The notes under the pieces were generated by a model. That model was given only the letters and a program-made list of their open reading frames with translations, searched no databases and was not told the origin of the DNA. Position numbers and translations under genes: made by a program. Shown here piece by piece: positions 6,247-25,275 of a DNA stretch of 33,764 nt. The stretch comes from Nitriliruptorales bacterium (lineage in GTDB: Bacteria; Actinomycetota; Nitriliruptoria; Euzebyales; Egibacteraceae): the NCBI GenBank assembly GCA_007126835.1, contig SLAO01000059.1, forward strand, positions 1-33,764, read 5' to 3'. The stretch's first letter is position 1. Every line of letters starts with the position of its first letter.

Positions 6247-6264
6247 CAGGCCCCGCCGACGGCG

Positions 6265-6726
6265 TCATCCCGTGGCCGAACCGCCGAGGTGGCGTTCTTC
6301 CACCGCGTTCATCTTCTCGACCTTTGGTGCGGAGCCTCCACCCTGGAACTCCGACTCCAGCCAGTGCTCCAGCACCAGCTCCGCAGCCTGCGGAGCGATC
6401 ACCCTGGCGCCCATCGTCAGGACCTGCGCGTCGTTTGACTTGCGGGCCCGCTCCGCCGAGTAGGCGTCGTGGGCCGTGGCCGCGCGCACGCCTGGCACCT
6501 TGTTGGCGGTGATCGCCATGCCGAGTCCGGTGCCGCAGACCAGCAATGCTCGATCGGTCTCCCCGCGCGCCACGCCTTCAGCAACCTTCTCGGCCACGTC
6601 GGGGTAGTCCTCACCCTCGCCGTTGCCGTAGTCCTTGACCTCGTGGCCGTGCTCGCGCAGGTACGTGACGAGGTGCTCCTTTAGTGGGGCGCCGGCATCG
6701 TCGGCGCCGACAGAGATGATCGCCAT
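6265..6726 (-). CDS. rpiB: Ribose-5-phosphate isomerase B / sugar-phosphate isomerase (RpiB/LacA/LacB family)
   Basis: 'MAIISVGADDAGAPLKEHLVTYL...ALLVCGTGLGMAITANKVPGVRAATAHDAYSAERARKSNDAQVLTMGARV' matches RpiB across the whole length, including the catalytic CGTG. A GAAGGAG RBS precedes the start. Confidence 0.9.
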   Translation of the reverse strand: MAIISVGADDAGAPLKEHLVTYLREHGHEVKDYGNGEGEDYPDVAEKVAEGVARGETDRALLVCGTGLGMAITANKVPGVRAATAHDAYSAERARKSNDAQVLTMGARVIAPQAAELVLEHWLESEFQGGGSAPKVEKMNAVEERHLGGSATG

Positions 6727-6760
6727 GGCAAGCTCCTTCGCGGGTTTCTCGTTTGCCGGT

Positions 6761-6799
6761 GGCGGCCGGCCCTGGCCTCACGGGGCGCAGCCGGCCGCC
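6761..6799 (-). other. Intercistronic GC hairpin between the FGGY kinase and rpiB
   Basis: Perfect 10-bp arms GGCGGCCGGC (6761-6770) and GCCGGCCGCC (6790-6799) separated by a 19-nt loop. It lies inside the 87-nt gap between the kinase stop and the rpiB start. Confidence 0.35.
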
Positions 6800-6813
6800 G
6801 TCGTTTCACGCTG

Positions 6814-8388
6814 TCAGCCGACGTGGTCCTCGCCGACGCGACGCACCACGCTGTGCACCAGGTCGCGCAGGGCGGGCCAGGTGTCGACGTAGTGGTCGAT
6901 GTAGAACTTGTATGTCTTGGTTCGCTGGGGATCGGGCTGGAACGTCTCGGTCTCGTGCACCATCGCCGCGGCGGCTTCCTCGACGCTGGGGAACACCCCC
7001 GCGCCGGCAGCGGCCAGGATCGCCGAGCCAAGCACCGCTGCGTCCCCGACCTTGGTCAGGGTCACGGGCACGCCTGTGACGTCGGCGTGCATCTGCGTCC
7101 ACACCCGGCTGTTGGTGGCGCCGCCAGCCGCGACGAACTGCTCGACGTCGAAGCCGGCGTCGGACATCGCCCGCAGCGTGTGAGCCACTCCGTAGCAGAC
7201 TCCTTCCTGGATCGCCCGGTAGACGTGCGCAGGGGAGTGGTGGAGGCTGAAGCCCCACATCACCCCACGGGCCTCCTGGTCGGTGTAGGGCGTGCGGTTG
7301 CCCTGCCAGTAGTCGAGCACGATCAGGCCCTCGGAGCCCGGGGGTATCTCGTCGGCCCGCTGGTTCATGATGTGATAGGGATCGACGCCCTCGGCCTCCG
7401 CCTCGGCGATGACGTCCTTCAAGAAGTTGTCCTTGAACCACTTCAGGACTGACCCGGTCGATACACCGCCACCCTCGACGGTGTGCTGGCCCGGCATCAC
7501 CGCCGACGGGTACGCGCCGAAGAACCCGCGCCCGCTCACCGACGCCGGGCTCTGGCCCGACAGCACGTGCGACGACCCGGTGATCAACGCCATCTTGCCG
7601 GGCTGGACGACGTTCAACCCGATCTGGGCGTGCCAGGCGTCGCCACCACCCTGCGCCACCGGCGTGTTGGGGGCCAACCCCAACTCCTCGGCGACGTCGG
7701 GCAGCAGACCGCCGACGTGCTCTCCGAGGTTCAAGACGTCGTCGGGCAGCTTCTCGAGCACGTCGCCGAGCCCGATCTCCTCGTAGAAGCTCGTCGGCCA
7801 CCCGCCGGTGTCGGCGTTGTAGTAGGCCCGCGTGCTGTTGGAGTTGATGTTGGCCGTCCAGCGGCCGGTCAGCCGGTACGTGATCCAGTCCGCACAGTCG
7901 ACTAGCCGGTGCGCGGCCTGGTAGACCTCGGGCTCCCGCTCCTTGAGCCACAGCGCCTTACAGGGGTACCACTCGGCGTTGACCGGCCCGCCGCCGTTGT
8001 AGGCCCGCGCAGGGTGGTCGGACTCGCCGATGCGCCGAGCCTGGTCGGTCGCGCGGACGTCCATCCACATGATCGCCGGTCGCAAGTGCTGGCCGTTTCC
8101 GTCGACGGCGACAAGCGTCAACGTGGTGGCGTCGTAGGAGATCCCAGCGATGTCTTGCGGGCTGACGCCGGTGCGCTGCATCGCGCCCCGAACCGACGAG
8201 ACGAGACCGTTCCACCAATCTGCAGGGTCTTGCTCCGCCCAGCCTGGATGTGGGTGGGTCAGTGGGTAGGGGGTGGCCTCGAAACCCAACGGTTGACCCT
8301 CGAGGTCGAACACGCCGACGCGCACGCTCTCGGTGCCCATGTCGATCCCGAGGACGTACGGTCCGCTGCTCTGTGCTGCGTCGGTCAT
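6814..8388 (-). CDS. FGGY-family carbohydrate kinase, pentulose (ribulokinase-like) type
   Basis: 'YVLGIDMGTESVRVGVFDLEGQP', 'GWAEQDPADWW' and the C-terminal 'VAAGGATNSRVWTQMHADVTGVPV' are FGGY N- and C-domain signatures. The size of about 524 aa fits pentulose kinases. I chose ATG 8388 because of the GGGAG RBS; the track start at 8412 has none. Confidence 0.85.
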   Translation of the reverse strand: MTDAAQSSGPYVLGIDMGTESVRVGVFDLEGQPLGFEATPYPLTHPHPGWAEQDPADWWNGLVSSVRGAMQRTGVSPQDIAGISYDATTLTLVAVDGNGQHLRPAIMWMDVRATDQARRIGESDHPARAYNGGGPVNAEWYPCKALWLKEREPEVYQAAHRLVDCADWITYRLTGRWTANINSNSTRAYYNADTGGWPTSFYEEIGLGDVLEKLPDDVLNLGEHVGGLLPDVAEELGLAPNTPVAQGGGDAWHAQIGLNVVQPGKMALITGSSHVLSGQSPASVSGRGFFGAYPSAVMPGQHTVEGGGVSTGSVLKWFKDNFLKDVIAEAEAEGVDPYHIMNQRADEIPPGSEGLIVLDYWQGNRTPYTDQEARGVMWGFSLHHSPAHVYRAIQEGVCYGVAHTLRAMSDAGFDVEQFVAAGGATNSRVWTQMHADVTGVPVTLTKVGDAAVLGSAILAAAGAGVFPSVEEAAAAMVHETETFQPDPQRTKTYKFYIDHYVDTWPALRDLVHSVVRRVGEDHVG

Positions 8389-8458
8389 GGTTGCGCTCCC
8401 TTGTTGCATCATCCCGTAGGTTTCGCGGCGGCGCGGCGCGCCTACCGCGTGGAACTGA

Positions 8459-9358
8459 TCATCCGTCGTGCCCGTCGTCCTCCTCCCATCCGAGGTACTC
8501 CCAAAGCCGGGGCGGCAGCAGACGATCCACGCGCTCGAGGACGAAGTCCGGTGCTTGCGCTGCAGGCAGCCCGTGCAGCTCGTCTCGCTGGGTGTCGCCG
8601 GTCAGCACCAGCGCGCTGGCAGCACCGGCTTCCCGCGCCAGCCGGATGTCCGTGCTGAGCCGGTCACCGACCATCACCGCGCGGGCGGGGTCAACCGTCA
8701 GCCCCGCCAGAGCGGTGTGCAAGATCGCCGGGTCGGGCTTGCCGACGTTGACCTCGCAGGTGGCGCCGGTGCAGGCTTCGATCGCCGCGACGACGGCGGC
8801 GCAGTCTGGTTCCCCGCGCCCTCCCGGCATCGGGCAGTACCGGTCGGGGTTGGTCGCCACGAGCCGCGCTCGCCTGTGGAACCACAAGGCGTCGAAGGCG
8901 ATCTGGAGCTTGCGGTACTCGAAGCCGCGGTCGTAGCTGGCGACGACGATGTCGATCTCGCTGGGGTCTTCGGACATGCGAATGCCGGCTTGCTCGAACG
9001 CCCGGATCAGCGGACCTTCGGCGATGGGGAACACCACCGCGTCGGGCGCGTTGTCGAGCAACCACCGGGTCATGACCACCACGGTGTTGACGATGTCGTC
9101 AACCGGTGTCGGCAGCCCCAGGGCCTCGAGCTTGTCCGCGTACTGCTGCGGGTCCTTCGTGGGATTGTTGGACAGGAACCGGACCGGGCGGTCCAGATCA
9201 CGCAACGCCGTGATCAGGCGGCCTGCCCCAGGCAGGAGGGCCTCACCGAGGTAGATCGTCCCGTCGAGGTCGAAGACGTAGGCGTCGTAGAGCTCGTCGG
9301 GGACCCGGCCCGCCGCCGGCCCCCGTCGGGGAGCCTGGCTCATCTGCGGGCTCGGCAT
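8459..9358 (-). CDS. HAD-IIA (NagD-like) sugar-phosphate phosphatase
   Basis: 'YVFDLDGTIYLGEALLPGAGRLI...RFLSNNPTK' gives HAD motifs I and II, and 'VGDRLSTDI' gives motif IV. ATG 9358 is preceded by GGAGGAACG. I trimmed the track ORF that starts at 9448. Confidence 0.85.
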   Translation of the reverse strand: MPSPQMSQAPRRGPAAGRVPDELYDAYVFDLDGTIYLGEALLPGAGRLITALRDLDRPVRFLSNNPTKDPQQYADKLEALGLPTPVDDIVNTVVVMTRWLLDNAPDAVVFPIAEGPLIRAFEQAGIRMSEDPSEIDIVVASYDRGFEYRKLQIAFDALWFHRRARLVATNPDRYCPMPGGRGEPDCAAVVAAIEACTGATCEVNVGKPDPAILHTALAGLTVDPARAVMVGDRLSTDIRLAREAGAASALVLTGDTQRDELHGLPAAQAPDFVLERVDRLLPPRLWEYLGWEEDDGHDG

Positions 9359-9780
9359 CGTTCCTCCGTTGGCCGGAGATCGTGCGGGCCGTCGGCCGTC
9401 CAGCTGGCGCCCGGGACGAGGCTCTTCCTGCGCGCGACCAGGCTCCACCGAGGCAACCCTGCTCGCGCCGACGGTCGCGTCCGTGACGGTACGACCTCCG
9501 CCCGGCAGTTGGCAATCGTCGCCATGGTCGCCCCTTACCCTCGAAGCCTGGAGCCTGTGCGCTGGCCGAACGTGCGTCCCAATCGTGCGCCGGCGCCGGT
9601 GCCGGTGTCGGCCCCGGAGAGCGTTGCCGCGGCAGCCGCCCTGCGCCAGGTCCTAAATCCCACGGTGGCCGGTGAGGCTCGGGGCCGCCGGGGGCCCGGG
9701 TTGTGCTCGCTTTCGACGACGGGTGCGCAAGGCCGGGAAGCCAGACCTGCCGTCGGAAGATCGGTCCGACTTCTGTTCAC

Positions 9781-9855
9781 TATCCGGTGGTTAGAACTAT
9801 CGTGTGTGTTACTCTACACATGAAATGTGTCGTTTACAACAGTCAAACGAACACG
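9781..9855. promoter_or_regulatory. AT-rich island with nested inverted repeats (candidate promoter/operator array or small-RNA element)
   Basis: GC content drops sharply here. It contains TGTGT-N6-ACACA (9804-9820), the 15-bp palindrome ACACAT-GAA-ATGTGT (9816-9830), and TCGTTT-N9-AAACGA (9830-9850). On the minus strand TTGTAA-17nt-TAGAGT reads as a possible -35/-10 pair pointing toward the HAD operon. Confidence 0.35.
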
Positions 9856-10016
9856 ATGCCGGGCACGGTGCCTGTGAGTGCGCACCACGGCCTGCCGACG
9901 GTCGACGCGCCACGGCGCGCGGAGACCGGATGACCACCGGCGCCGCCTGCGATGCGGTCCGCGCTAGCTCCCATGAGGTCCGAAGCGCGGTCCGGGGCAA
10001 CGGCTGCGGTCCCGCC

Positions 10017-10835
10017 TCAGGCGTCGGAGGCTGGCGCAACCTCCACCGCGACGCCGAGTTGGCGCAGCTCCTCGAGGTGCTCGGGTGCGATGCCCGAATC
10101 GACGATGACGAGGTCGAACTCCGTCACGGAGGCGAGATGATGGACCGCTCGCTTGCCGAACTTCGCGTGATCGGCCAGCAGGATCTTGCGGGCCGCCGCC
10201 TGCATGAGCGCCAGCTTGACCTCGATCGTCTCCTGGGAGCGGTGGTAGCAGCTTCCGGCGGTGATCGCGGTGGTCGACGCGAACAGCAGGTCGGCGGTCA
10301 TCGAGCCGACCGACTCGGCGGTGCGCAAGCCCAAGAACGCGTCGTACGCAGGGCGGTACGCGCCCCCCAGGGCGATCAGATCGATGCCGGGCTTGCGGCT
10401 GAGCAGCTGAAGGGAGGGCAGGAAGTTGGTGATGACCGTGACCGGTCGCCGGTTCGGCAGCAACTGGGCCAGCCCGTAGCCGGTCGTGCTCTCGTCGAGC
10501 ATGATCGTGTGGCCGCGCTCGACGTGGCCGAGGGCGTGCGCGGCGATCTCCCCCTTGGCGGCCGCCATGGCCTGCATCCGGTGGCGCACGTCGCCGTGGT
10601 AGAAGGCCGACGGCTCGGCAGTCGCGCCACCTCTGACCTTGCGGACCCAGCCCTGCTCCTCGAGCAGCTCGAGATCTCGACGGATGGTCATCCCGCTGAC
10701 CGCGAACGCGTCGGCGAGCTCGCCAACGGACACGAACCCGTGGGTCAGGATGCGCTCGCGGATCGCCTCTTGCCGGTCCTGCGGGCTCAGTTCGGACTCG
10801 GCTTCGGCGGGAATCTCGTCGGGCGTGCCTTCCAT
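10017..10835 (-). CDS. DeoR-family transcriptional regulator (HTH plus sugar-phosphate-binding DeoRC domain)
   Basis: 'RQEAIRERILTHGFVSVGELADAFAVSGMTIRRDLELLEEQGWVRKVRGGA' is the DeoR HTH. The C-terminal 'ADLLFASTTAITAG...KILLADHAKFGKRA' is the DeoRC effector domain. The start is ATG 10835; the track ORF extends to 11234 with no coding signal. Confidence 0.9.
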   Translation of the reverse strand: MEGTPDEIPAEAESELSPQDRQEAIRERILTHGFVSVGELADAFAVSGMTIRRDLELLEEQGWVRKVRGGATAEPSAFYHGDVRHRMQAMAAAKGEIAAHALGHVERGHTIMLDESTTGYGLAQLLPNRRPVTVITNFLPSLQLLSRKPGIDLIALGGAYRPAYDAFLGLRTAESVGSMTADLLFASTTAITAGSCYHRSQETIEVKLALMQAAARKILLADHAKFGKRAVHHLASVTEFDLVIVDSGIAPEHLEELRQLGVAVEVAPASDA

Positions 10836-11116
10836 GCGCGATCTCCGAACGACCGTTGCGGTCGCGGCAACTCCGACCGCGCCAAGGTCACACGGCAATG
10901 TAGCAGGGGCCAGGAAAAGCCCCGGAGCCGGATGCCCAACGCACACAACATCGCCGGTGGGCCTCCCCATTGGTGCGCGCCGATGCCGAGGCGTAGCGTC
11001 GAGGCAGCGGCCTTGGGCGTACGCTGCTGCCAGACGCAGCCACGTTCTGCGTTGCTGGTGCGGCAGCCGGCAACCCAGTCGGATTGACAGCCCACGGCAG
11101 AAGAGGAATTGAGCCG

Positions 11117-13144
11117 ATGCAGACCACTTCGACGGACACGACGACCGAGACGCTCGCGGTGGACACCGTGCGAGTGCTGGCGATGGATGCGATCGAGCGT
11201 GCAGGGGACGGCCACCCGGGCACGGCCATGGCACTGGCGCCAGCCGCCTACGTGCTGTGGTCGCAGTTCCTGCGCTTCGACCCCGCCGACCCCGACTGGC
11301 CAGACCGTGACCGGTTCGTGCTGTCGGTCGGTCACGCGTCGGTGCTCCAGCACATCGTGTTGCACCTGACCGGCTACGACCTCGGCATCGACGATCTCAA
11401 GTCCCAGCGTCAGCTGGGTTCGAGGACCCCCGGGCACCCTGAGCGCGGCCACACCCCCGGGGTCGAGACCACGACAGGCCCGCTCGGCCAGGGCGTCGGC
11501 AACGCGGTGGGTTTTGCGATCGCCGAGCGGCTGCTCGCCGACCGCGCCGGCGGCGACCTGGTCAACCACCGGACATGGGTCTTCGCCGGGGACGGCGACC
11601 TCATGGAGGGCGTGTCGGGCGAGGCGTCCTCCCTGGCCGGTCACCTCGGGCTGGACAAGCTCACCGTCTTGTACGACGACAACCGGATCACCATTGACGG
11701 CGGCACCGACCTTACCTTCAGCGAGGACGTGGGCGCCCGGTACGAGTCCTATGGCTGGCACGTGCAGCACATCGAGGACGCCAACGACCGCGACGCGATC
11801 GCCGCGGCGTACGCTGCGGCGGTGGCCGAGACCGAGCGGCCCTCGCTGATCCGGCTGCGCAGCGTCATCGCCTGGGGCGCGCCCAACAAGTCGGGCACGT
11901 CCTCGGCACACGGCTCGGCGCTGGGCGCCGACGAGGTGGCAGCCACCAAGACCTTCTACGGCTGGGATCCCGAGGCCACGTTCGTGGTGCCTGATGGGGT
12001 GCCCGAGCGCTGGCGCCAGCGGGTGCCCGAGCACCAGGCCGAGCGGCAGGCGTGGGAGTCTCGGGCGCAGGCGCGGGCCGAGCACGACCCAGACCTGGTG
12101 GCCAACTTGCGCTCCACGACCGGCGGCGTCCTGCCTGACGGCTGGGACGACGACCTCGAGGGCCTCTTCGACGACGCTGGCGCCATGGCCACCCGCAAGG
12201 CGTCGAGCAAGGTGATCCAGACCCTGGCGGCTCGCGTGCCCGGGCTCGTGGGTGGATCCGCCGACCTCGCGGGCTCGAACCTGACCACCATCGAGGGTGG
12301 GGGGGACCTGTCGCGCCACGAGGTCGGTCGCAACATCCACTTCGGCGTGCGCGAGCACGCGATGGGCGCGATCGCCAACGGCCTGGCTGCGCACGGCGGC
12401 CTGCATCCGTTCGTGGCGACGTTCCTGGTGTTCTCGGACTACATGCGGCCCTCGGTGCGCCTTGCGGCGTTGATGAGCTTGCCCGTGGTGTACGTGTGGA
12501 CCCACGACTCGGTCGGGCTGGGCGGCGACGGGCCCACCCACCAACCCGTCGAGCACCTGGCCTCGCTGCGGGCGATGCCCAACCTCGAGGTGATCCGCCC
12601 GGCCGACGGACCCGAGACGGTCGAGGCGTGGCGCGCGGCGCTGGCGCGCACCGACGGGCCCACGGCCCTGGCGTTCTCGCGCCAGTCGGTGCCGGTCTTG
12701 GACCGCGACGAGCTCGCCTCGGCGGCTGGTCTTGCCCGTGGCGGCTACGTGTTGCGGGAGGCCGGCGGTGGGGCACCGCAGCTGATCCTGATCGCCTCCG
12801 GCTCGGAGGTCGGCCTCGCGGTCGACGCGGCCGTGCGTCTCGAGGCCGAGGATGGCGTGCCGACGCGTGTTGTCTCCCTGCCCTGTTGGGAGCGGTTCTC
12901 CGACCAGGACGCGGACTACCGCGCCCGCGTGATCCCGGCGGACGTCCCGGCCCGCTTGGCTGTGGAGGCCGCCAGCCCATTTGGGTGGCGCGAGTGGGTC
13001 GGCGAGGCGGGGGAGACGCTGGGGGTGGAGACCTTCGGCGCGTCGGGCCCCGGCGGCGAGGTCCTGGCCGAGCGCGGCTTCACCGTGGACAACGTCGTTT
13101 CCAGGGCGCGCGGCCTGCTGTCCCGTCTTGACTCGAGCAAGTGA
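11117..13144 (+). CDS. tkt: Transketolase
   Basis: '[46 protein letters not shown]' and '[25 protein letters not shown]' are the ThDP-binding motifs. '[28 protein letters not shown]' is also present. An AAGAGGAA RBS precedes ATG 11117. Confidence 0.96.
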
Positions 13145-13220
13145 CCGCGAACAGGCATGGTGGACGTCGACGGCCACCGCGCACCGTCGGCCGACAGCCG
13201 CCCCGACCCCAGGAGGCATC

Positions 13221-14348
13221 ATGACCGACCGACTCGCCGAGCTTTCCGCCCAGGGCGTAGCCGTGTGGGTGGATTCGATCGCCCGCGACTGGATCGAGCA
13301 CGGCCACCTGGCACGCTTGCGTGACGAGCGGTCAGTGGTCGGCGTGACGTCGAACCCGACGATCTTCGAGCAGGCGATGCGCCAGGGAGACCGCTACGAC
13401 GCGTCGTTGACCGAGCTAGCCCAGCAAGGCCTTGACGCACGGACCATCTTCGAGCGGCTCGCGCTGGAAGACATCCGCGCAGCAGCGGACGTGCTGCATG
13501 GCGTCTACGACGCGACCGACGGCCACGACGGCTACATCTCCTACGAGGTCGCGCCCGACCTGGCACACGACAGCGATGCCACGGCAGCGGAGGCCACGCG
13601 GCTGTTCGCTGCGCTGGACCGCCCGAACGTGATGATCAAGATCCCGGCGACGCTCGAGGGCCTGCCGGCGATCCGCGAGGCGATCGGGGCGGGCGTCAAC
13701 GTCAATGTCACGCTGATCTTCTCGATCGCGCGCTACCGTGCCGTCGTGGACTCGTACCTCTCGGGGCTCGAGGATCGCTTGGCCGCCGGCGGTGATATCT
13801 CCGGCATCCACAGCGTCGCGTCGTTCTTCGTCAGCCGGGTCGATGGGCTCGTCGACCCGCGGTTGGCCAAGGTCGTCGACGAGGGCGGGCCCGGTGCGGA
13901 CCTCGCCGCGGCCCGGCTCGGGACCGCCGCGATCGACAACGCCAAGCTGGCCTACGAGGCCGGAAGTGAGCTGTTCGCCGGCGACCGCTGGCAGGCGCTG
14001 ACGGCCCGCGGCGCCAATGCTCAGCGTTGCCTGTGGGCCTCCACGTCGACGAAGAACCCCGAGTACCGGGACGTGGTCTACTGCGAGGAGCTCATCGGTC
14101 GCGGGACGGTCAACACCATGCCCCTGGCGACCATCGACGCGTTCGCCGACCACGGCGAGGTTCGCGGGCAGACGGTGGCGGAGAACATCGACCGCGCTCA
14201 CCGCCTGTGGCCCGAGCTCGCTGAGCTCGGCCTCGACGAAGACGCCGTCGGCGAGGAGCTCGAAGAGGACGGCGTCCGCAAGTTCGCCGCCAGCTTCGAG
14301 GCACTGCTCGAGACCATCGAGGATCAGCGCCGCCGCGCGCTCGGTTAG
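13221..14348 (+). CDS. tal: Transaldolase (actinobacterial long type)
   Basis: 'VWVDSIARD', 'GVTSNPTIFEQA', 'YISYEVAPDL', the Schiff-base lysine in 'VMIKIPATLEGLPA', 'NVNVTLIFS' and 'FFVSRVD'. An AGGAGG RBS lies at 13211. Confidence 0.95.
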   Translation: MTDRLAELSAQGVAVWVDSIARDWIEHGHLARLRDERSVVGVTSNPTIFEQAMRQGDRYDASLTELAQQGLDARTIFERLALEDIRAAADVLHGVYDATDGHDGYISYEVAPDLAHDSDATAAEATRLFAALDRPNVMIKIPATLEGLPAIREAIGAGVNVNVTLIFSIARYRAVVDSYLSGLEDRLAAGGDISGIHSVASFFVSRVDGLVDPRLAKVVDEGGPGADLAAARLGTAAIDNAKLAYEAGSELFAGDRWQALTARGANAQRCLWASTSTKNPEYRDVVYCEELIGRGTVNTMPLATIDAFADHGEVRGQTVAENIDRAHRLWPELAELGLDEDAVGEELEEDGVRKFAASFEALLETIEDQRRRALG

Positions 14349-14645
14349 CCTTGGCTTAGCTTCGAGCTAGCCCTCGAACGTCCCTGTGCGCGCCGGCGAC
14401 TGACGCTCCGGTGCCGGCGGCTCGTTGCGCCGTGGGACCCCCGACCTTTCAGGTGGGGACGAAGCGCACTGTGCCGGCTGCGTGTCCCGATCTACGGTAA
14501 CGCCACTACATGATGCCGCTGTCTCGGAGGCACGCCATGCCGGCGTTCGCAAAGCACTGCGTTGCACGTCCCGGTGGCCATGGCAGCGGCGTCGCAGGTC
14601 AGTCGATGTCGCCTCGCATTTCATGAGGCGTAGTCAGGGGCTAGC

Positions 14646-16031
14646 GTGACGCAATCTGGTCTGTCAGAGCAGGGCAACGGCGCTCAAGGCGGTCCCGGCC
14701 AGATGCCCGGCGACGTCGCCGAGCCGTCGGGCGGCTCGATGGTGCTGCCGCCGGTCGAACGGGGTGACGAGGCCTACGTCAGCCGGATCCCTGAGGGGAT
14801 GCTGGTCCGCGCGACCAGCGCAACCGGGGGCGCCTCTGGTGTGGGCGTGACGCCGCGGTTCAAGCAGGTCATCGACGAGTTCTCCGAGGCTGTCAGTGCC
14901 GGGGGCACGCCCGCGGGCTTTCGCATCGAATCGGCTGTCGATGGCGACGGCGCGGTCCGTTTCGACCTGGTGCGCGACATCTCACGCGACCGCAACGGCC
15001 AGCGGCGCCCCACGCCGCTGCTGTTCTCGGTGGACTCGGCCAACCCCTACGAGGTGGCGCCGTGTGCAGGCCTGGTCGCGAACCTCACCTGCAACCCGGG
15101 CATCGTCTACGACTTGTTCCTCAACAACCCCGAGGCCAACGTCGGCAACCGCTTTTCCACGCTCGAGGAGGTGATCGCCGAGCTTGGCCGTGTGCTCGGG
15201 CCGGGCTGCGACATGAGCGTGGAGCTGAACAACCCGTTCGCTGACTTCGGGCAGATCCTCGAGGACATCCACCGCTACGAAGAAATCGTCTCGTCGCACA
15301 GGCTGGTCGTCAAGGTGCCCCACACCGGACCGGTCAACGCCGACAACGTCTCGCAGTTGCTCACCGGCGACAAGCGCCTCGATCGTCGCTACGACCAGGG
15401 CAGCACGCAGGACTACCTGCACGGCCACAACCTTGCGTTGCGGCTGCACGAGCACGGCTACCGGGTCAACTTCACGCTGATGTTCGAGCCCCACCAGGTG
15501 CCGCTGGCGCTGCAGGCCAGGCCGTACTTCATCAACGCGTTCTTGCGGCACCGTCGAGCTGCCACGCGCACGCTGCAAGGGCTCGTCGCGGCATACGAGA
15601 CCACCCACGAGCGCGGGTTCCTCACCCAGCTGCGGGAGTACATGCTCAAGCAGGACTTCCTGTCGGCCCACGACACCGAGGCGGATCTGCTGTCGGTGCT
15701 CGAGAAGGCTCGCACCTACCTCTACAACCGCCGAGCCGACGGGGAGGGCGCCGACGGACTCGATTCCGCACGTCAGGCCCTGCGGTGGCTGCGCACCGCC
15801 CACCTGCCCGACACCCGCCTGATCATCTGCAGCATGGAAGGTCCCACCTGGTACCCAGACGTCACCGCCATGCTCACCGAGCCCGAGTTCGCCGACATGC
15901 ATGACCGGGTGGTCATCACCACCGAGCCCAACTACCTCGCACGGTGGTCCAGCGCCCCCCAAGTCGTCAGCTACCAACGCCGGTTCATGAACGCCGCACA
16001 AGCCGCCAACGAAGCCGCTGAAGCCACCTGA
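14646..16031 (+). CDS. Divergent transaldolase/FSA-fold (class I aldolase) protein with N-terminal extension and internal insertion; function unknown
   Basis: It aligns by eye with the neighbouring Tal and with FSA. 'LLFSVDSANPYEV' corresponds to VWVDS (Asp). 'ANLTCNPGIVYD' corresponds to TSNP (Asn). 'MSVELNNP' corresponds to SYEV (Glu). 'LVVKVPHTG' corresponds to IKIPAT (Schiff-base Lys). 'VNFTLMFE' corresponds to VNVTLIFS. 'NAFLRHRR' corresponds to FFVSRVD. GC3 is high. The start is uncertain (GTG 14646 or an internal ATG). Confidence 0.6.
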   Translation: MTQSGLSEQGNGAQGGPGQMPGDVAEPSGGSMVLPPVERGDEAYVSRIPEGMLVRATSATGGASGVGVTPRFKQVIDEFSEAVSAGGTPAGFRIESAVDGDGAVRFDLVRDISRDRNGQRRPTPLLFSVDSANPYEVAPCAGLVANLTCNPGIVYDLFLNNPEANVGNRFSTLEEVIAELGRVLGPGCDMSVELNNPFADFGQILEDIHRYEEIVSSHRLVVKVPHTGPVNADNVSQLLTGDKRLDRRYDQGSTQDYLHGHNLALRLHEHGYRVNFTLMFEPHQVPLALQARPYFINAFLRHRRAATRTLQGLVAAYETTHERGFLTQLREYMLKQDFLSAHDTEADLLSVLEKARTYLYNRRADGEGADGLDSARQALRWLRTAHLPDTRLIICSMEGPTWYPDVTAMLTEPEFADMHDRVVITTEPNYLARWSSAPQVVSYQRRFMNAAQAANEAAEAT

Positions 16032-16083
16032 GCGACGGGTCGACATTCAGTCGCGCCATCTCGAACCGAGGAAAGGATCCGCA

Positions 16084-16803
16084 ATGGTCGACCTCGCGAC
16101 TGTGACCAGTTGGGAGCTCGGAAAGTGCTTTGACCAGTCGGTGCTGCCGAAGAACACCACCGAGGAGGACATCCGGGAGGGAGCACGCCTCGCGGTGAAG
16201 TACAACTGCGCGGCGTTTTACAGCTCGTCGCCGTATTGGACTTCGGTCGTGCTCGAAGAGCTCGAGGGCACTGACGTTCTGCCAGCCGCCGCGATTGCGT
16301 TCCCCTTCGGCTCGGCGACATCGCTGGTGAAGGTCAAAGAAGCTGAGGAGGCCGCCAGTCTGGGCTGCCGAGCTTTGGACATGGTGATGAACATCGGTGC
16401 ATTGAAGAGCGGACGCAGCGATGACGTGCGCCGCGAGTGCCGGGAGTTCCGAGACGCGGCCGGCGACGCGCTCACGAAAGTGATCCTGGAGACTTGCTTC
16501 CTCACCGACGACGAGATCCGTCGCGGCTCGGAGATCGTGGCCGAGGAAGGCATCGACTACGTCAAGACGTCATCCGGGCAGTTCGAGGGTCCCAGCATGG
16601 AGCACGTCCTGATCATGCTGGACGCTGTCTCCGAGACCCCGACCAAGGTCAAGGTGGCGGGTGTGAAGTTCCCCCGACCCCAGAACGCCTACGCCTTCCT
16701 GCTTGCGGGCGTCGACCTGATCGGCACGCGCGACGCACCGACGATCATCGATGCACTAGACCAGATGCGGCAGATCGGGCTCGTCCCGGCCTACCGCGGC
16801 TGA
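16084..16803 (+). CDS. DeoC/DERA-family class I aldolase, paralog 1
   Basis: 'FDQSVLPKNTTEEDI', 'AFPFGSAT', 'LDMVMNIGALKSG', 'TKVILETCFLTDDEI', 'DYVKTSSGQ' (Schiff-base Lys) and 'KVKVAG' follow the DERA motif order. A GGAAAGGA RBS precedes the start. Confidence 0.8.
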   Translation: MVDLATVTSWELGKCFDQSVLPKNTTEEDIREGARLAVKYNCAAFYSSSPYWTSVVLEELEGTDVLPAAAIAFPFGSATSLVKVKEAEEAASLGCRALDMVMNIGALKSGRSDDVRRECREFRDAAGDALTKVILETCFLTDDEIRRGSEIVAEEGIDYVKTSSGQFEGPSMEHVLIMLDAVSETPTKVKVAGVKFPRPQNAYAFLLAGVDLIGTRDAPTIIDALDQMRQIGLVPAYRG

Positions 16804-16814
16804 GGAGGCAGAGC

Positions 16815-17504
16815 ATGCTGACCGTGGCCGAGTACGCCAAACATCTCGACATGGCCGTGCACCTCCAGAAGCTGGGCGAGGCCGACATCCGCCAGTACGC
16901 GCGGCAGGCGCGAGAGGCCAACGTCGCGGCCTTCTACACCAACCCGTTCTGGAACGCGGTGGTGGCCGAGGAGCTCGCGGGGTCCGACGTGCGGGTGGGG
17001 GCCGGGATCGCGTTTCCCTACGGTGCCACCACGACCGGCGTCAAGTTCGCCGAGATCTCCGACGCCCTGGAGAACGGCGCGACCGCGGTGGACATGGTCG
17101 TCAACATCGGGGCGCTCAAGGACGGCAACTACGTCCTGATCGACAAGGAGCTCGCCGGGCTGCGGGACCGTTGCGCCGGCACCGCGCTGACCAAGCTGAT
17201 CTTCGAGGTCGCGTTCTTGACCGACGAGGAGATCGTCACCCTGACCCGGATGTGCTGTGACGCCGGCTTGGACTACGTGAAGACCTCGACGGGCACTGAG
17301 GGCTTCCCGACCGAGCACCACGTCAAGCTCATGCGCGACAGCATCACCAATGACCGGACCAAGCTGAAGGTGTCCGGGGTGCCCCGCCAGTTCACGCTCG
17401 CCGCAACCTTGTGGATGCTCGACATGGGCGTGGACCTGATGGGCACCCGCAGCGCCGCCAACCTCGTGGCCGAATACGCCGCGCACCTCGCCGAGAAGTC
17501 CTAG
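16815..17504 (+). CDS. DeoC/DERA-family class I aldolase, paralog 2
   Basis: 'AFPYGATT', 'VDMVVNIGALKDG', 'TKLIFEVAFLTDEEI', 'DYVKTSTGT' and 'KLKVSG'. A GAGGAGG RBS precedes ATG 16815. The gene starts 11 nt after paralog 1 ends. I trimmed the track ORF starting at 16437. Confidence 0.8.
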   Translation: MLTVAEYAKHLDMAVHLQKLGEADIRQYARQAREANVAAFYTNPFWNAVVAEELAGSDVRVGAGIAFPYGATTTGVKFAEISDALENGATAVDMVVNIGALKDGNYVLIDKELAGLRDRCAGTALTKLIFEVAFLTDEEIVTLTRMCCDAGLDYVKTSTGTEGFPTEHHVKLMRDSITNDRTKLKVSGVPRQFTLAATLWMLDMGVDLMGTRSAANLVAEYAAHLAEKS

Positions 17505-17520
17505 CCGGAAGGAACCGAAC

Positions 17521-19038
17521 ATGTCGCAGTACCTGGTAGGCATCGACGCCGGGACCACTGGCTGCAAGACGTGCATCTTCGATGTCGAAGGCACCGTCAT
17601 CGCATCCGACTACCGTGAGTACCCCTCGTACTACCCGAAGCCTGGCTGGGTCGAGCAGCTGTCGGAAGACCTCGTGCCGCCGCTGTTCGACTCGTGCAAG
17701 GCCGCGGTCGAGCGCTCCGGCGTGGACCCCGCAGAGATCGTCGCGCTGGCCATCTCGACACAGGGCTCGATCATCGGCCTGCTCGATGAGCGAGGCGAGA
17801 CCATCCGACCTTGGATCGGCTGGCAAGACCTACGGGGCGAGCCGTACCTCGAGGAGATCAAGAAGCTCATCCCGCAGGACCGGTACTACCAGATCACCGG
17901 CGACCCGCTCGGGGCGATCTTCTCGATCAGCAAGCTGGCCTGGCTCAAGGACAACGAGCCCGAAAACTGGGCGCGTGCCGAGCTGTTCTCCACCGAGCAG
18001 GACTTCCTCCTGCGCCAGTGGGGAGCCGACGAGTACTGGACGGACCTGTCCTCGGCTTCGCGCGAGGGCATGTTGGACATCGACAACTTCGTGTGGTCCA
18101 AGGAGATCCACGACCTGATGGGCATCCCCTTGGAGAAGCGGGCGAAGATTTCGACCGAGCCCGGCCAGGTGGTCGGGCGCCTGTCGAAGGAGGTCGCCGA
18201 GCGCAGCGGCCTGGCCGAGGGCACCCTGCTGTGCGTGGGCGCGCACGACCAGAACTGCTCGACGTTCGGGGCCGGTGCGGTTCGCGGCGGCGACACGGTC
18301 ATGGTCATCGGCACGTTCGGCTCGTGCTTCGTCGTCATGGACGAATCCAAGCGGGACCCCAACGCCAAGCTCGTCGTCAAGCCCAACCACGGCTTGGACA
18401 ACTGGACGATCGAGGCGTTCTCGGTCACGTCGGCATCGGCGTTCCGCTGGTACCGGGACACGTTCGCGGACCTGGAGGTCGCCGCCTCCAAGCAGCTGCG
18501 CGAGGACCCCTACGACCTGATCACCCGAGCCATCGCGGGCGTGCCTCCCGGCTCGGACGGCATCACGTTCCTGCCCTTCCTGCAGGGCGCGTCGGGTGCG
18601 CGCCTCAACGCCAACGCCCGCGGCACGTTCGTGGGGATGAGCCTGGGCACGTCGAAGGCCGCGATGGCCCGCGCGGTGCTTGAGGGAATCTCCTTCGAGA
18701 TGAAGGACATCCTGCTCGCCCAAGCCGCCGCCGGGATCGACATCGGCGCCATCCGTCTGACCGGCGGAGCGGCGAAGTCGCCGATGTGGTGCCAGATGCT
18801 CGCCGACATCTTCCAGCGACCCATCGAGCTGCTGCAGACCTCCGAAACCGGCGCCCTCGGTGCGGCCCTGTACGCCGGGGTTGGGGCAGGCATCTACGCC
18901 GACTGCACCGAGGCGGCCGATCGCGCGGTGAAGATCAGCAAGCGCTACGAGCCCGACCCCACCGTCGTGGACCAGTACGAGGAGGCCTTCGACCGCTTCG
19001 TCCGCGTCTACGAAGCACTCGACGGCCGGATCTTCTAG
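17521..19038 (+). CDS. FGGY-family carbohydrate kinase (xylulokinase-like)
   Basis: 'YLVGIDAGTTGCKTCIFDVEG', 'GWVEQLSEDL', 'LCVGAHDQNCSTFGAG' and 'RLTGGAAKSPMWCQMLADIFQRPI'. A GGAAGGAA RBS precedes the start, which is 16 nt after the preceding gene. Confidence 0.9.
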   Translation: MSQYLVGIDAGTTGCKTCIFDVEGTVIASDYREYPSYYPKPGWVEQLSEDLVPPLFDSCKAAVERSGVDPAEIVALAISTQGSIIGLLDERGETIRPWIGWQDLRGEPYLEEIKKLIPQDRYYQITGDPLGAIFSISKLAWLKDNEPENWARAELFSTEQDFLLRQWGADEYWTDLSSASREGMLDIDNFVWSKEIHDLMGIPLEKRAKISTEPGQVVGRLSKEVAERSGLAEGTLLCVGAHDQNCSTFGAGAVRGGDTVMVIGTFGSCFVVMDESKRDPNAKLVVKPNHGLDNWTIEAFSVTSASAFRWYRDTFADLEVAASKQLREDPYDLITRAIAGVPPGSDGITFLPFLQGASGARLNANARGTFVGMSLGTSKAAMARAVLEGISFEMKDILLAQAAAGIDIGAIRLTGGAAKSPMWCQMLADIFQRPIELLQTSETGALGAALYAGVGAGIYADCTEAADRAVKISKRYEPDPTVVDQYEEAFDRFVRVYEALDGRIF

Positions 19039-19146
19039 CGAGGGCCGCAGCGGTCGTCGGCAACGTCGCGGCCTCCGTGGATCGGGTGGATGAGCCCATC
19101 CACGGGGGCCGCGGAACGTGGCGTACGCGGCGCGGGCATTGGGCGA

Positions 19147-20040
19147 TCACGCGCTGGCTTCGCGAGGGTGGAGCAAGGCGCGGACCTGCGCGATCGTGGC
19201 GGTGGCCTTGGCCCCCGCGCGCCGAGCTGCGTCGTCGAGCCCCGAGAAGTCCAGCACCCGCACATCCGGACCAAGGTCCGGGCGCAGCGCCAGGTCCGCG
19301 TCCGACAAGCGCTCCTCGACGAACGCGCGCTGCCCCAGCTCCACTCCTCGCAGCAGCCCGCTGACCGGCCCTTCGGGCTCCTCGGCGAGCAGGCCCGGCC
19401 CGACCGGGACCGCCGCCACGACGACGTCGGCGCCCAGATCCCGAGCCACGTCCACTGGGGCCGGGTCGCTGAACGCTCCGTCCACCAGGAGCTGATCGCC
19501 GCGCCTGACCGGACGGGTCACGCCCGGCAAGGCAGACGAAGCCAGCGTCGCTTCGCTGACCAGCCCGCGGTCGAGCACCGCCCGGCTTCCGGCCGTCAGG
19601 TCGGTGGCGACCAGGGCGAGCGGGATGCGGGTGGCGTCGAACGTCAGTGACGCCCCCACCAGCTCGTCCAGCGAGCGGCGTCCCAGGGATTCGTAGCCCT
19701 GACGGCCCCACGTCCACACCGAAGGTGCCAGTTGGCGGGCGCTGCGCAGCGCGCCTCGCAGCCGGGCGAACGTCTCGTCGTCCGCGACGCCGGCGGTGGC
19801 CGGCAGGCGACTGCGGTCCACCGCCTGCAGGGCATCGGACCAGTCGGTGCGTGCCCCGTACGCCGCCGCCACGATCGCCGCGGTCGACACTCCGACGAGC
19901 ACGTCGGGCGAGAGCCCGGCGCGTTCGTACACCCCCAGCACCCCGGCGGCTGACAGGCCCCGTACGCCTGTGCCGCCGAGGACGAGGCCCAGCTTCAGCC
20001 GTTCGCCGTCCACACCCTCCATGGTGCCCACCTCGACCAT
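19147..20040 (-). CDS. Patatin-like phospholipase
   Basis: 'LGLVLGGTGVRGLSAAGVL' is the oxyanion-hole Gly-rich/Arg motif. 'LVGVSTAAIVAAAYG' is a GxSxA variant of GxSxG. 'LLVDGAFSDPAPVD' carries the catalytic Asp (DGA). The start is ATG 20040 or ATG 20022; the track ORF up to 20715 is an over-extension. Confidence 0.75.
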   Translation of the reverse strand: MVEVGTMEGVDGERLKLGLVLGGTGVRGLSAAGVLGVYERAGLSPDVLVGVSTAAIVAAAYGARTDWSDALQAVDRSRLPATAGVADDETFARLRGALRSARQLAPSVWTWGRQGYESLGRRSLDELVGASLTFDATRIPLALVATDLTAGSRAVLDRGLVSEATLASSALPGVTRPVRRGDQLLVDGAFSDPAPVDVARDLGADVVVAAVPVGPGLLAEEPEGPVSGLLRGVELGQRAFVEERLSDADLALRPDLGPDVRVLDFSGLDDAARRAGAKATATIAQVRALLHPREASA

Positions 20041-20161
20041 GACGATCGAGCGGTGCGCGTGGCCGGCGCATTCTCGTCGTCCGATTCTGCCCGGAACCGG
20101 GCCGTGTCCCGCGGGCGAACTACACTGTGGCCGCATCCCCGGCCCCGACCGTGAGGTCCCG

Positions 20162-21181
20162 GTGAACCAACCCCCGCAGCATCCCGGTTTCCGACGGCTG
20201 GCCACGGTGACCGCGGCGTTGACCCTGGGGCTCATCGCCCTGGGAGGCGCCGTCCGCGCCACCGACTCCGGCCTGGCCTGCCCCACGTGGCCTGGATGCT
20301 TCACCGCCGGGGACTTCATCCCGCCCGCGGACTTGAACGTCTGGCTGGAGCACTCCCACCGCCTCGTCGCCATCGTGGTTGGCTTGCTGGTCGCATGGTT
20401 GACCCTGTGGGTCCTGATGCGCTTCCGCCACCGCCGGGACCTGCTGTGGCCGACGCTGGCGGCGGCCGTGTCGGTCAACGTCCAGGCCGTGCTCGGGGCG
20501 TTCGTGGTGTGGCGCTGGCTCGAGGCCTGGCTGGTCACCGCGCACCTGACGTTGGCGATGCTGATCCTGGCGACGATGCTGGCCATCGCGGTCAACGCGT
20601 CGCATCCCCGGCCGACCCGGGCGGTCAGCCGGAAGCTCGACCTGCGCTTGGGACGCTGGTCGGCAGGCGTGGCGACGTTCGCCCTGGTGCAGATCGCGGT
20701 GGGGGGACAGGTCACCGGCGTGGGAGCCGGTCTTGCCTACCGTCTCCAGGGCTTTCCGCTGATGGACGGCGCGGTGTTCCCAGCCGTGACCGAGGCGACG
20801 AGCCGGCAGCTGTACCACGCAAGCCACCGCATGCTGGGGTTCGCGCTGCTGCTTGCCGTCGCATGGCTGTGGTGGCGCGCGGCCCGCGAGCGCTCTGCCC
20901 GACAGCAGGCCGGCAGCTGGAGCGAACGGCACGACTGGCTCGTTTGGCTGCCAGCCCTCGCCACCGGCTTGGTCGTCTTGCAGATCGGCATCGGGGTGAC
21001 CAACATCGCCTCGGACTTGTCCTGGCTGTCGGTCATCCCGCACCTGGCCGTGGCCAGTTGGATCTACACCGCGTTGTTCCTGCACACGATGCTGGCCTAC
21101 CGCTGGGCGGACCCTGTTGAGGCTCGAACCACAGGCCGGCCCGAGGCGACCGCAGACACCGCAGCGCAGGCCCGCCCGTGA
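20162..21181 (+). CDS. ctaA: Heme A synthase (COX15/CtaA family)
   Basis: 'LGLIALGGAVRATDSGLACPTWPGCF' and 'LEHSHRLVA' (His ligands), with a second half carrying 'YHASHRMLGF' and 'VIPHLAVASW'. The protein is polytopic. GTG 20162 has a GAGG RBS. I trimmed the track ORF starting at 19796. Confidence 0.85.
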   Translation: MNQPPQHPGFRRLATVTAALTLGLIALGGAVRATDSGLACPTWPGCFTAGDFIPPADLNVWLEHSHRLVAIVVGLLVAWLTLWVLMRFRHRRDLLWPTLAAAVSVNVQAVLGAFVVWRWLEAWLVTAHLTLAMLILATMLAIAVNASHPRPTRAVSRKLDLRLGRWSAGVATFALVQIAVGGQVTGVGAGLAYRLQGFPLMDGAVFPAVTEATSRQLYHASHRMLGFALLLAVAWLWWRAARERSARQQAGSWSERHDWLVWLPALATGLVVLQIGIGVTNIASDLSWLSVIPHLAVASWIYTALFLHTMLAYRWADPVEARTTGRPEATADTAAQARP

Positions 21182-22134
21182 ACCCTGGGCACACGTCGGC
21201 CAGGCCCGTTGCCGCCGACTACGCTGGTCACCGTCGCGGGTGGCGGGGCACCATCCGGGCCTACGTCGCGCTGACCAAGCCGCGGATCATCGAGTTGCTG
21301 CTGGTGACGACCGTGCCGACGATGATCGTCGCCGAGCGGGGGTTGCCCCACTGGTGGCTGATCCTCGCGACGCTTGTCGGGGGCACGCTGGCGGCTGCGA
21401 GCGCCAACACGATCAACTGCTTCGTCGATCGCGACATCGACGAGCGGATGGCGCGAACCGCGCACCGTCCCCTGGTCACCGACGACGTGGGCCCTGTCAA
21501 CGCGTTGCGGTTCGGCATCGTGCTCGGCGTGTTGTCGTTCGTCTGGCTGCTGGCGACGGTCAACGCCCTATCGGCGACGCTGGCGGTCGTCGCGATCTTG
21601 TTCTACGTCTTCGTCTACACCATCGGGTTGAAGCGTCGCTCGGCGCAGAACATCGTGATCGGTGGCGCCGCCGGCTGCATGCCGGTGCTGATCGGCTGGG
21701 CCGCCGTCACCGGAGAGCTGGGGCTGCCGGCGATCGTCCTGTTCGCGATCGTGTACTACTGGACCCCGCCGCACTTCTGGGCGCTCGCGCTCAAGCATCG
21801 CGTGGAGTACGCCGCCGCCGGCGTGCCGATGCTGCCGGTCGTGGCGGGCTTCGCCGAGACGACCAAGCAGATCCTGCTCCACAGCGTGATCATGGTCTCG
21901 GTCACGTTGATGTTCGGGGCCATCGGCGGGATGGGCCTGCTGTACCTGACCGCTGCCGTGGCCCTGGGCGCGCGCTTCCTCCATCTTGCGTGGCGCCTGC
22001 GCCGGGCGGAGGATGACCAAGCCGGCGACCGGCTCGCGATGCGGCTGTTCCGGTTCTCGATCACCTACCTGGGGCTGCTGTTCGTGGCCATGGCGGTCGA
22101 CGCGTTGCTGGCCGGGTGGGGCATTCTGGCCTGA
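21178..22134 (+). CDS. ctaB: Protoheme IX farnesyltransferase (heme O synthase)
   Basis: 'YVALTKPRIIELLLVTT', 'NCFVDRDIDERMARTAHRPLV' and 'YYWTPPHFWALAL' are the UbiA/CyoE signatures. The GTG start overlaps the ctaA stop (GTGA). Confidence 0.92.
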   Translation: MNPGHTSARPVAADYAGHRRGWRGTIRAYVALTKPRIIELLLVTTVPTMIVAERGLPHWWLILATLVGGTLAAASANTINCFVDRDIDERMARTAHRPLVTDDVGPVNALRFGIVLGVLSFVWLLATVNALSATLAVVAILFYVFVYTIGLKRRSAQNIVIGGAAGCMPVLIGWAAVTGELGLPAIVLFAIVYYWTPPHFWALALKHRVEYAAAGVPMLPVVAGFAETTKQILLHSVIMVSVTLMFGAIGGMGLLYLTAAVALGARFLHLAWRLRRAEDDQAGDRLAMRLFRFSITYLGLLFVAMAVDALLAGWGILA

Positions 22135-22615: not shown

Positions 22616-25249
<2,634 letters not shown>

Positions 25250-25275
25250 GGATGCTCCTCTCGGATGCGGGTGCG

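Follow-up and report, generated by a model that had tools for sequence, protein, structure and literature searches.

In a contig of a Nitriliruptorales bacterium (SLAO01000059.1), of which we analysed a stretch of 33,764 nt with 69% G+C (the window), the gene at positions 14646 to 16031 on the plus strand encodes a member of a long transaldolase-fold protein family, for which we use our own label TALL. Judged by sequence comparison, TALL is an isolated, strongly constrained island in sequence space and represents a distinct, apparently uncharacterised branch, about 440 residues long, of the fold shared by transaldolases and fructose-6-phosphate aldolases (TAL/FSA). We propose, with a probability of about one half, that TALL is a functional class I enzyme that would provide the dihydroxyacetone-transferring (transaldolase) step in accessory operons for the breakdown of sugar phosphates, pentoses or nucleoside sugars. 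Transaldolases are usually divided into five subfamilies, each with solved structures. TALL is a further branch, which is isolated in sequence and strongly conserved, has double the size of the minimal enzyme and is distributed over many phyla.

The active-site motifs were examined in an alignment of 122 full-length TALL sequences, with residues numbered according to the 461 amino acid (aa) protein starting from GTG 14646. They appear in the order V129-D130-S131, T148-C149-N150-P151, S191-V192-E193, V222-K223-V224-P225, N275-F-T277-L-M-F280 and F299-L-R301-H-R303-R304. Eight of these residues (D130, N150, S191, K223, N275, T277, F299 and R303) are invariant in all 122 sequences, and E193 and R301 are each kept in 121. 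Profile-profile alignment by hhalign against the transaldolase of B. subtilis (86%, E-value 5e-6) placed the motifs on the catalytic Asp, Asn, Ser-x-Glu, Lys, Asn-x-Thr and Phe of that enzyme. An AlphaFold2 model calculated from an alignment of 24 sequences reached a predicted local distance difference test score (pLDDT) of 87.1 and a predicted template modelling score of 0.84 and showed a TAL-type (β/α)8 barrel with eight strand-helix units. Its predicted strands 126–129, 144–149, 189–193, 220–224, 274–279 and 295–299 end in the catalytic motifs, with K223, the counterpart of the catalytic Lys in B. subtilis TAL, located in strand 220–224 (β4). When the model was compared with the Protein Data Bank (PDB) by Foldseek, the best 50 matches were all small transaldolases or FSA (E-values 5e-11 to 1e-8, probability 1.00, template modelling (TM) score ~0.8 on the target, 14–18% identity). 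Because the motifs are conserved in 122 sequences, are aligned at the profile level, lie at strand ends in the model and belong to a fold matching TAL/FSA, we consider them beyond chance and the predicted catalytic set complete. A preliminary description made from the letters of the window alone had listed each of these motifs in this order and expected a barrel with the Lys at the active-site position, which the predicted model and the alignment support.

On the plus strand, the segment from β1 to β4 occupies positions 15018 to 15320, as delimited by the alignment to B. subtilis TAL, the strand positions and conservation. It includes the codons of Asp130 (15033–15035), Asn150 (15093–15095), Ser191 to Glu193 (15216–15224) and the Schiff-base Lys223 (15312–15314). 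The segment from β5 to β6 (15468–15554), defined by alignment and conservation, carries Asn275 and Thr277, the TAL-type Phe299 and the loop Arg301-His302-Arg303. Further downstream, the C-terminal helix carries the motif Y443-Q-R-R-F447 (15972–15986), whose residues Y443, R445, R446 and F447 are invariant and whose Q444 is almost so. At the two positions that discriminate between TAL and FSA, TALL has Glu193 (121 of 122 sequences) and Phe299 (all 122), compared to Gln in β3 and Tyr in β6 of FSA. These positions are marked by swap-variant PDB entries among the Foldseek matches, 4xz9 (TacTAL E60Q/F132Y) and 4rz4 (FSA Q59E/Y131F).

By sequence, TALL stood apart from all characterised transaldolases. 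The Pfam model PF00923 (TAL_FSA) scored 21.2 bits, against a gathering threshold of 27, and matched only aa 200–300; many homologues carry a precomputed match to this model, some of them flagged as weak. None of the NCBIfam TAL/FSA models matched (best TIGR00875, E-value 0.18, 11 bits against a cut-off of 246), and no significant match was found among PDB sequences (phmmer E-value ≥0.2; profile E-value ≥0.04). A profile search of 1.84 billion representatives at 50% identity returned a single full-length TALL cluster plus fragments and did not reach the canonical TALs. Together, these searches rule out membership in a known TAL subfamily and thus uphold the view that the protein lies outside of them. 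In the classification of Samland and Sprenger, subfamilies 1 to 5 reportedly correspond to the TalB-type, plant-type, actinobacterial long, small TAL and FSA enzymes. Those proteins have ~210–230 or 315–375 aa and no extra domain, whereas TALL has 417–464 aa, an N-terminal module and two insertions. Three representatives of 367–499 aa (P0129, P0130 and P0145) matched TALL partially and could be frameshifts, chimeric assemblies or real fusions.

We found at least 1715 TALL clusters at 90% identity, with lengths of 417–464 aa and 55–77% identity to the query over ~90% of its length. The gene is present in approximately 403 of 185,579 species-representative genomes from at least 8 phyla, including Actinomycetota, Bacillota, Spirochaetota, Chloroflexota, Bacteroidota, Verrucomicrobiota, Elusimicrobiota and others. 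Among these genomes, a metagenome-assembled genome (MAG) of the Nitriliruptoraceae encodes the closest relative, with 75% identity. In the source annotations, the members are called only “transaldolase (family protein)” or “hypothetical protein”, and full-text searches of the literature yielded no description of the family. We also found no structure and no curated model for it.

A decayed or non-catalytic paralogue, that is, a pseudoenzyme or a protein with a purely structural or regulatory function, is extremely improbable. The sub-threshold Pfam score would fit such a protein, as would the lack of pairwise similarity to the canonical transaldolase (Tal) encoded next to TALL in the window, but more than 120 homologues at 52–77% identity keep the catalytic positions without or almost without change, and the mean column identity is 60% across phyla. 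In addition, TALL genes are found in operons with metabolic enzymes, and the reading frame is normal in composition and integrity. It runs intact from GTG 14646 to the stop codon at 16031, and its identity is further supported by the homologues and by the AlphaFold2 and Foldseek results. The G+C content at third codon positions (GC3) is 0.87, usual for the genes in the window, and a ribosome-binding site (AGGGG, 14636–14640) lies 5 nt 5′ of the GTG. Translation may instead begin with an ATG, either at aa 20 (14703) or at aa 32 (14739); the first of these starts is called in one database copy of the window protein (P0001). The G+C content is slightly lower at 15001–18000 (0.645–0.66 compared to ~0.69–0.70), for which we considered horizontal transfer of the operon, yet GC3 is ordinary there. 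The reading frame and the view that TALL is not a decayed paralogue therefore hold as first described, with corrections to the extension, the insertions and the phosphate site.

The N-terminus had been described as an extension of roughly 125 aa. The barrel indeed begins at about residue 125, but only aa 1–35 (14646–14750, plus strand) form a variable, disordered, low-complexity tail without conservation (pLDDT 33–50). The following aa 36–124 (14751–15017, plus strand) constitute a family-specific α/β module, recognised by conservation and in the AlphaFold2 model, with P89, G91, L108 and R110 invariant and F79, F92, D111, R121 and T123 nearly invariant in the 122 sequences. The module is predicted to be folded, with a pLDDT of 85–95 in the full model and 92 when modelled alone. 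Foldseek found no structural relative of it in the PDB (best E-value 0.55, TM score ≤0.39), and the idea of a known regulatory or binding domain was set aside.

Two insertions interrupt the barrel. The first, of ~30 aa (aa 225–253; 15318–15404, plus strand), follows straight after the Schiff-base Lys opposite a gap in B. subtilis TAL and contains the invariant residues H226 and G228. The second, of ~62 aa (aa 304–365; 15555–15740, plus strand), lies in the β6–α6 loop and is helical, with helices 303–320, 323–335 and 348–361 in the AlphaFold2 model. In the global hhalign alignment it corresponds to a gap, after which DGLD 370–373 re-aligns with NGLD of B. subtilis TAL. An extra segment after FLRHRR had thus been noticed correctly, but it is shorter than the ~70 aa given for it, and the insertion after the Lys had gone unmentioned. 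Since both insertions leave from C-terminal strand ends, they would decorate the catalytic face of the barrel. All three additions are fixed traits of the family and not peculiar to the window gene.

The phosphate site differs as well. FLRHRR had been recognised as a basic stretch at this site, and Arg301 and Arg303 are indeed conserved, but the canonical Arg position in the β6 loop corresponds to His302 between them. In β7 (predicted strand 391–395), TALL has Ser396-Met-Glu398 (15831–15839, plus strand), where TAL/FSA enzymes have the phosphate-binding Ser-x-Arg/Lys. The alignment to B. subtilis TAL in this region reads DTRLIICSMEGP / DTQIIAASIRHP, with the equivalence taken from the strand register and a low-confidence global hhalign alignment. 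Residue 398 is Glu in 103 of the 122 sequences, Asp in 16, Gln in 2 and Ala in 1. The phosphate site thus appears not to be canonical in an enzyme whose predicted chemistry set is complete. The remodelled site (Arg301-His-Arg303, Glu398) together with lids over the active site suggests that acceptor recognition may differ from that of canonical transaldolases.

Among known enzymes, the small transaldolases of subfamily 4 (B. subtilis 3r8r, T. maritima 1vpx, T. acidophilum 3s0c/6ys0) are the best structural matches, with E-values of ~1e-10 and TM scores of ~0.8. They share with TALL the barrel, the order Asp, Asn, Ser-x-Glu, Lys, Asn-x-Thr, Phe, the Glu/Phe signature of transferases and the motifs DTAN/DSAN and TNP, and their C-terminal helix is likewise long. 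TALL differs from them by a sequence identity of just 14–18% (PDB sequence E-value ≥0.04), double the length, the N-terminal module and the 30-aa and 62-aa additions, as well as by RHR instead of GR in the β6 loop and Ser-x-Glu instead of Ser-x-Arg in β7. FSA (subfamily 5; 1l6w family, 4rz4, 5zol) resembles TALL in its fold, its Schiff-base chemistry and, for a part of the TALL family, in a genomic link to dihydroxyacetone metabolism. In contrast, it has the Gln/Tyr signature and none of the additions, the FSA model TIGR00875 stays far below its cut-off on TALL, and an hhalign comparison of TALL with E. coli FSA was not significant.

The actinobacterial long transaldolases (subfamily 3) are represented in the window by the neighbouring Tal (13221–14348). 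It belongs to the same superfamily, and its Ser-x-Glu, Lys and Asn-x-Thr align weakly with those of TALL, but it keeps the FVSR and STK phosphate motifs, and its extra elements are different. Pairwise similarity between the two was not significant (BLASTP E-value 0.16), and profile similarity was weak (hhalign E-value 6.5e-4, 28%), which rules out TALL as a recent or local duplicate of the neighbouring tal. A further point of comparison is SftT/SqvA, the 6-deoxy-6-sulfofructose transaldolase of the sulfo-TAL pathway, which is said to be a short, FSA-sized protein in which the TAL fold was recruited to a catabolic operon and to an acceptor with an anionic non-phosphate group. It exemplifies a TAL-fold enzyme with an altered acceptor in a dedicated operon; TALL is far longer. 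Sulfoquinovose genes (the set of sulfoquinovosidase, sulfoquinovose isomerase and sulfolactaldehyde dehydrogenase/reductase) were not seen around TALL loci, and neither were the defining genes of apiose and inositol pathways, so that these three pathways were set aside.

To delineate the genomic context, we clustered the neighbouring genes of 88 TALL loci and counted neighbours in those 50 loci that had 5 kb or more on each side. Half of these (25/50) have a split transketolase nearby, followed in frequency by RpiB (21/50), a GntR regulator (20/50), an aldolase of the dihydrodipicolinate synthase (DHDPS) family (18/50), a class II aldolase of the fructose-bisphosphate type (12/50), an FGGY kinase (10/50), DhaK/DhaL and a HAD phosphatase (8/50 each) and DeoC (7/50). 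Either a transketolase or a second aldolase is present in 44 of the 50 loci; the other 6 have no recognisable sugar genes nearby. Four arrangements recur. In one, the order is RpiB, TKn and TKc of the split transketolase and TALL, with or without a DHDPS-family protein, a 2-hydroxyacid dehydrogenase, PfkB and an ABC transporter. In another, TKc, TKn and RpiB are divergent from GntR and TALL. A canonical TAL was not found within 10 kb of the TALL genes in these transketolase/RpiB operons.

A single sequence family with at least 52% identity is found in very different operons, which points to a general central reaction. As half of the loci have transketolase and RpiB and lack a canonical TAL, a general transaldolase of the pentose-phosphate type is the most economical reading. 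The chemistry almost certainly consists of activating a ketose as a Schiff base and cleaving its C3–C4 bond. In the reaction that we envisage, a donor of the fructose-6-phosphate or sedoheptulose-7-phosphate type would be bound by Lys223, and the enzyme-bound dihydroxyacetone unit left after cleavage would be handed to an aldehyde acceptor instead of being released. Transfer would be favoured over release because Glu193 and Phe299 form the pair typical of transaldolases, whereas FSA has Gln/Tyr. There are two tendencies in these data. The exchange of Arg for Glu in β7, like the elements added to the catalytic face, points to a new specificity, and the varied contexts and the transketolase/RpiB neighbours point to a general reaction of the pentose-phosphate type.

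A different role is suggested by a third arrangement, in which a class II aldolase, a HAD phosphatase, DhaL, DhaK and TALL follow each other (loci L009, L011, L001, L007, L010, L016, L040, L046 and L067). It occurs mostly in Actinomycetota, among them the nearest relatives of the window protein, and also in Rubrobacter and Anaerolineae. Here TALL could act as an FSA-like aldolase that interconverts fructose-6-phosphate, or a related ketose phosphate, with free dihydroxyacetone and glyceraldehyde-3-phosphate and that, together with DhaK/DhaL, the HAD phosphatase and the class II aldolase, would form a bypass between hexose phosphate and trioses. In E. coli, fsaB is located in an operon with gldA, whose product makes dihydroxyacetone. 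However, Glu193 and Phe299 occupy the discriminator positions, half of the loci have transketolase and RpiB instead of DhaK/DhaL, and a kinase of another type takes the place of DhaK/DhaL in Nocardioides, Janibacter and Nostocoides, so that we regard release of free dihydroxyacetone as quite unlikely. In the respective loci of these three genera (L070, L071, L074 and L076), an APH/choline-kinase-like protein of ~330 aa is located between the HAD phosphatase and TALL, which looks like a non-homologous kinase replacement. We had also considered a link to erythrulose or tetritol metabolism through DhaK/DhaL and LerI as a class II aldolase. This candidate was dropped, since LerI is a TpiA homologue and not a class II aldolase (PMC10733421).

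The arrangement found in the window, with FGGY, DeoC and TALL, recurs in Clostridia, Verrucomicrobiota, Anaerolineae and Erysipelotrichaceae. In one Erysipelotrichaceae MAG (L073, 2338–17248), TALL, FGGY, DeoC, GntR, a class II aldolase, a PHP-domain protein and a HAD protein directly follow a purF-purM-purN-purH-purD-purB operon. In Lachnospiraceae M18-1, Faecalicatena orotica and others, an operon that begins with DeoC-TALL continues with nucleoside catabolism genes. The order of such a locus (L085, 9100–21155; also L081, L057 and L066) is conserved, with DeoC, TALL, DUF1097, a glyoxalase-fold protein, phosphopentomutase, an iron-containing alcohol dehydrogenase (Fe-ADH), an amidohydrolase, a PnrA-like binding protein, a nucleoside phosphorylase and an ABC transporter. 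This looks like an operon for nucleoside uptake and catabolism that contains TALL.

Across the 50 loci, a second aldolase (class II, DHDPS family or DeoC) is present in 35 and a kinase in 32, the kinases belonging to the four unrelated families DhaKL, FGGY, PfkB and APH-like. This combination raises another possibility, namely that TALL moves a dihydroxyacetone unit from fructose-6-phosphate or sedoheptulose-7-phosphate onto a free aldehyde supplied by the partner aldolase. The aldehyde might be acetaldehyde in the case of deoxyribose-phosphate aldolase (DERA), or glycolaldehyde or glyceraldehyde in the case of DHDPS-type or class II aldolases. The free ketose would then be phosphorylated by the co-encoded kinase and enter the pentose phosphate pathway via transketolase and RpiB. 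Glu/Asp398 instead of a phosphate-binding Arg/Lys, the location of both insertions on the catalytic face, the presence of TALL together with a canonical TAL in the window and in a Bacteroidales locus (L065) and the association of two different DeoC lineages with TALL are all consistent with such a salvage role. On the other hand, the invariant Arg303 and the almost invariant Arg301 lie beside the canonical Arg position and could still bind phosphate, the loci without sugar genes do not fit, the cycle would be net-neutral for several candidate aldehydes, and no biochemical precedent is known for such a dedicated pathway. Taken together, we judge aldehyde salvage unlikely. The broader notion of TALL as a sixth transaldolase subfamily, with lids and an acidic β7 residue suited to unphosphorylated aldehyde acceptors and with a general role in salvaging aldehydes into ketoses, is similarly doubtful.

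Several observations also weigh against the general transaldolase step that we prefer. TalB, small TALs and FSA all conserve the phosphate-binding Arg/Lys of β7 at the position of Glu/Asp in TALL, and the additions are large and strictly conserved even though enzymes of 212 aa perform the canonical reaction without them. The recurrent trio of TALL, second aldolase and kinase speaks against a purely canonical role, and the pairing with DhaK/DhaL in about one sixth of the loci would fit an FSA-like release of dihydroxyacetone. TALL occurs alongside the canonical Tal upstream of it in the window and alongside a small TAL within the same operon in the Bacteroidales locus, which argues against simple redundancy. 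Furthermore, the three-dimensional placement of Lys223, Glu398, Arg301/303 and the lids was derived from alignment and strand register, not from coordinates, and we found no enzyme assay for any member of the family.

The partners with which TALL is steadily associated, namely split transketolase with RpiB, dihydroxyacetone kinase, DERA-like aldolases and genes of nucleoside catabolism, suggest a hitherto unrecognised step in accessory sugar-phosphate metabolism. TALL may be the transaldolase step in operons or organisms that lack a recognisable TAL. If the salvage reading were true, it would explain why a second aldolase, a kinase and TALL recur, with or without transketolase and RpiB, across phyla. 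As biocatalysts for the formation of C–C bonds, TAL and FSA enzymes are in wide use, and a scaffold with a remodelled acceptor site could be of practical use.

Within the window, TALL lies downstream of genes for a full-length transketolase (11084–13144, plus strand; TIGR00232, 816.8 bits) and the canonical actinobacterial-type transaldolase (13221–14348, plus strand; NF002881, 485.6 bits; TIGR00876, 343.6 bits), which is outside of the TALL family. The intergenic gap of 297 bp between tal and TALL (14349–14645, plus strand) suggests a separate transcription unit for TALL; a simple scan of the gap detected neither a sigma-70-like promoter nor a terminator. A second TAL-fold gene directly after the housekeeping tal had been considered unusual, and it is rare, with a canonical TAL within 10 kb of TALL in only 2 of the 88 loci, the window and the Bacteroidales locus. 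The two genes are not co-located in relatives, and the adjacency is incidental and not a feature of the family. In the Bacteroidales locus, which comes from a MAG (L065, 7921–13395), TALL is located between E1alpha/E1beta and the lipoyl-E2 of a set resembling 2-oxoacid or acetoin dehydrogenase; next come genes for a canonical small TAL/FSA with 42% identity to B. subtilis TAL, for PfkB and GFO and for an AP_endonuc_2 protein.

TALL probably opens an operon of four genes, in which it precedes two DERA-like aldolases and an FGGY kinase, all on the plus strand and separated by 52, 11 and 16 nt. The first aldolase (16084–16803) scored 138.8 bits on TIGR00126 (cut-off 117.3) and matched DERA entries of the PDB with an E-value of 2e-32. 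It is an orthologue, with 55–64% identity, of the DeoC found beside FGGY and TALL in other phyla. The second aldolase (16815–17504) starts with ATG 16815 behind a GAGGAGG ribosome-binding site and is closest, with 50% identity, to the DeoC of the DeoC-TALL nucleoside operons. The two tandem aldolases share just 45% identity and fall into different lineages. The kinase at the end of the putative operon (17521–19038) has the Pfam domains FGGY_N/C and scored 313.9 bits on the XylB model, below the cut-off of 380; its best PDB matches are gluconate, autoinducer-2 and xylulose kinases.

Next to the transketolase gene, a divergent sugar cluster on the minus strand (4861–10940) encodes an Fe-ADH_2 protein, RpiB, an FGGY kinase of the pentulose type, a HAD-IIA phosphatase and a DeoR regulator. 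The Fe-ADH_2 protein is similar to glycerol-1-phosphate dehydrogenase but below the equivalog cut-off, and the RpiB scores on the model for D-erythrulose-4-phosphate isomerase, too. At the flanks of the region, we noted a gene of the sodium:neurotransmitter symporter family (312–1859) and a pyruvate phosphate dikinase-like gene (22616–25306), with no link seen. The usual gene order in Actinobacteria is tkt-tal followed by zwf-opcA-pgl. In the window (11084–22134), zwf-opcA-pgl does not come after tkt-tal, and the space between tal and ctaA/ctaB (20150–22134) is taken by the TALL operon and a patatin-like gene (19147–20100, minus strand).

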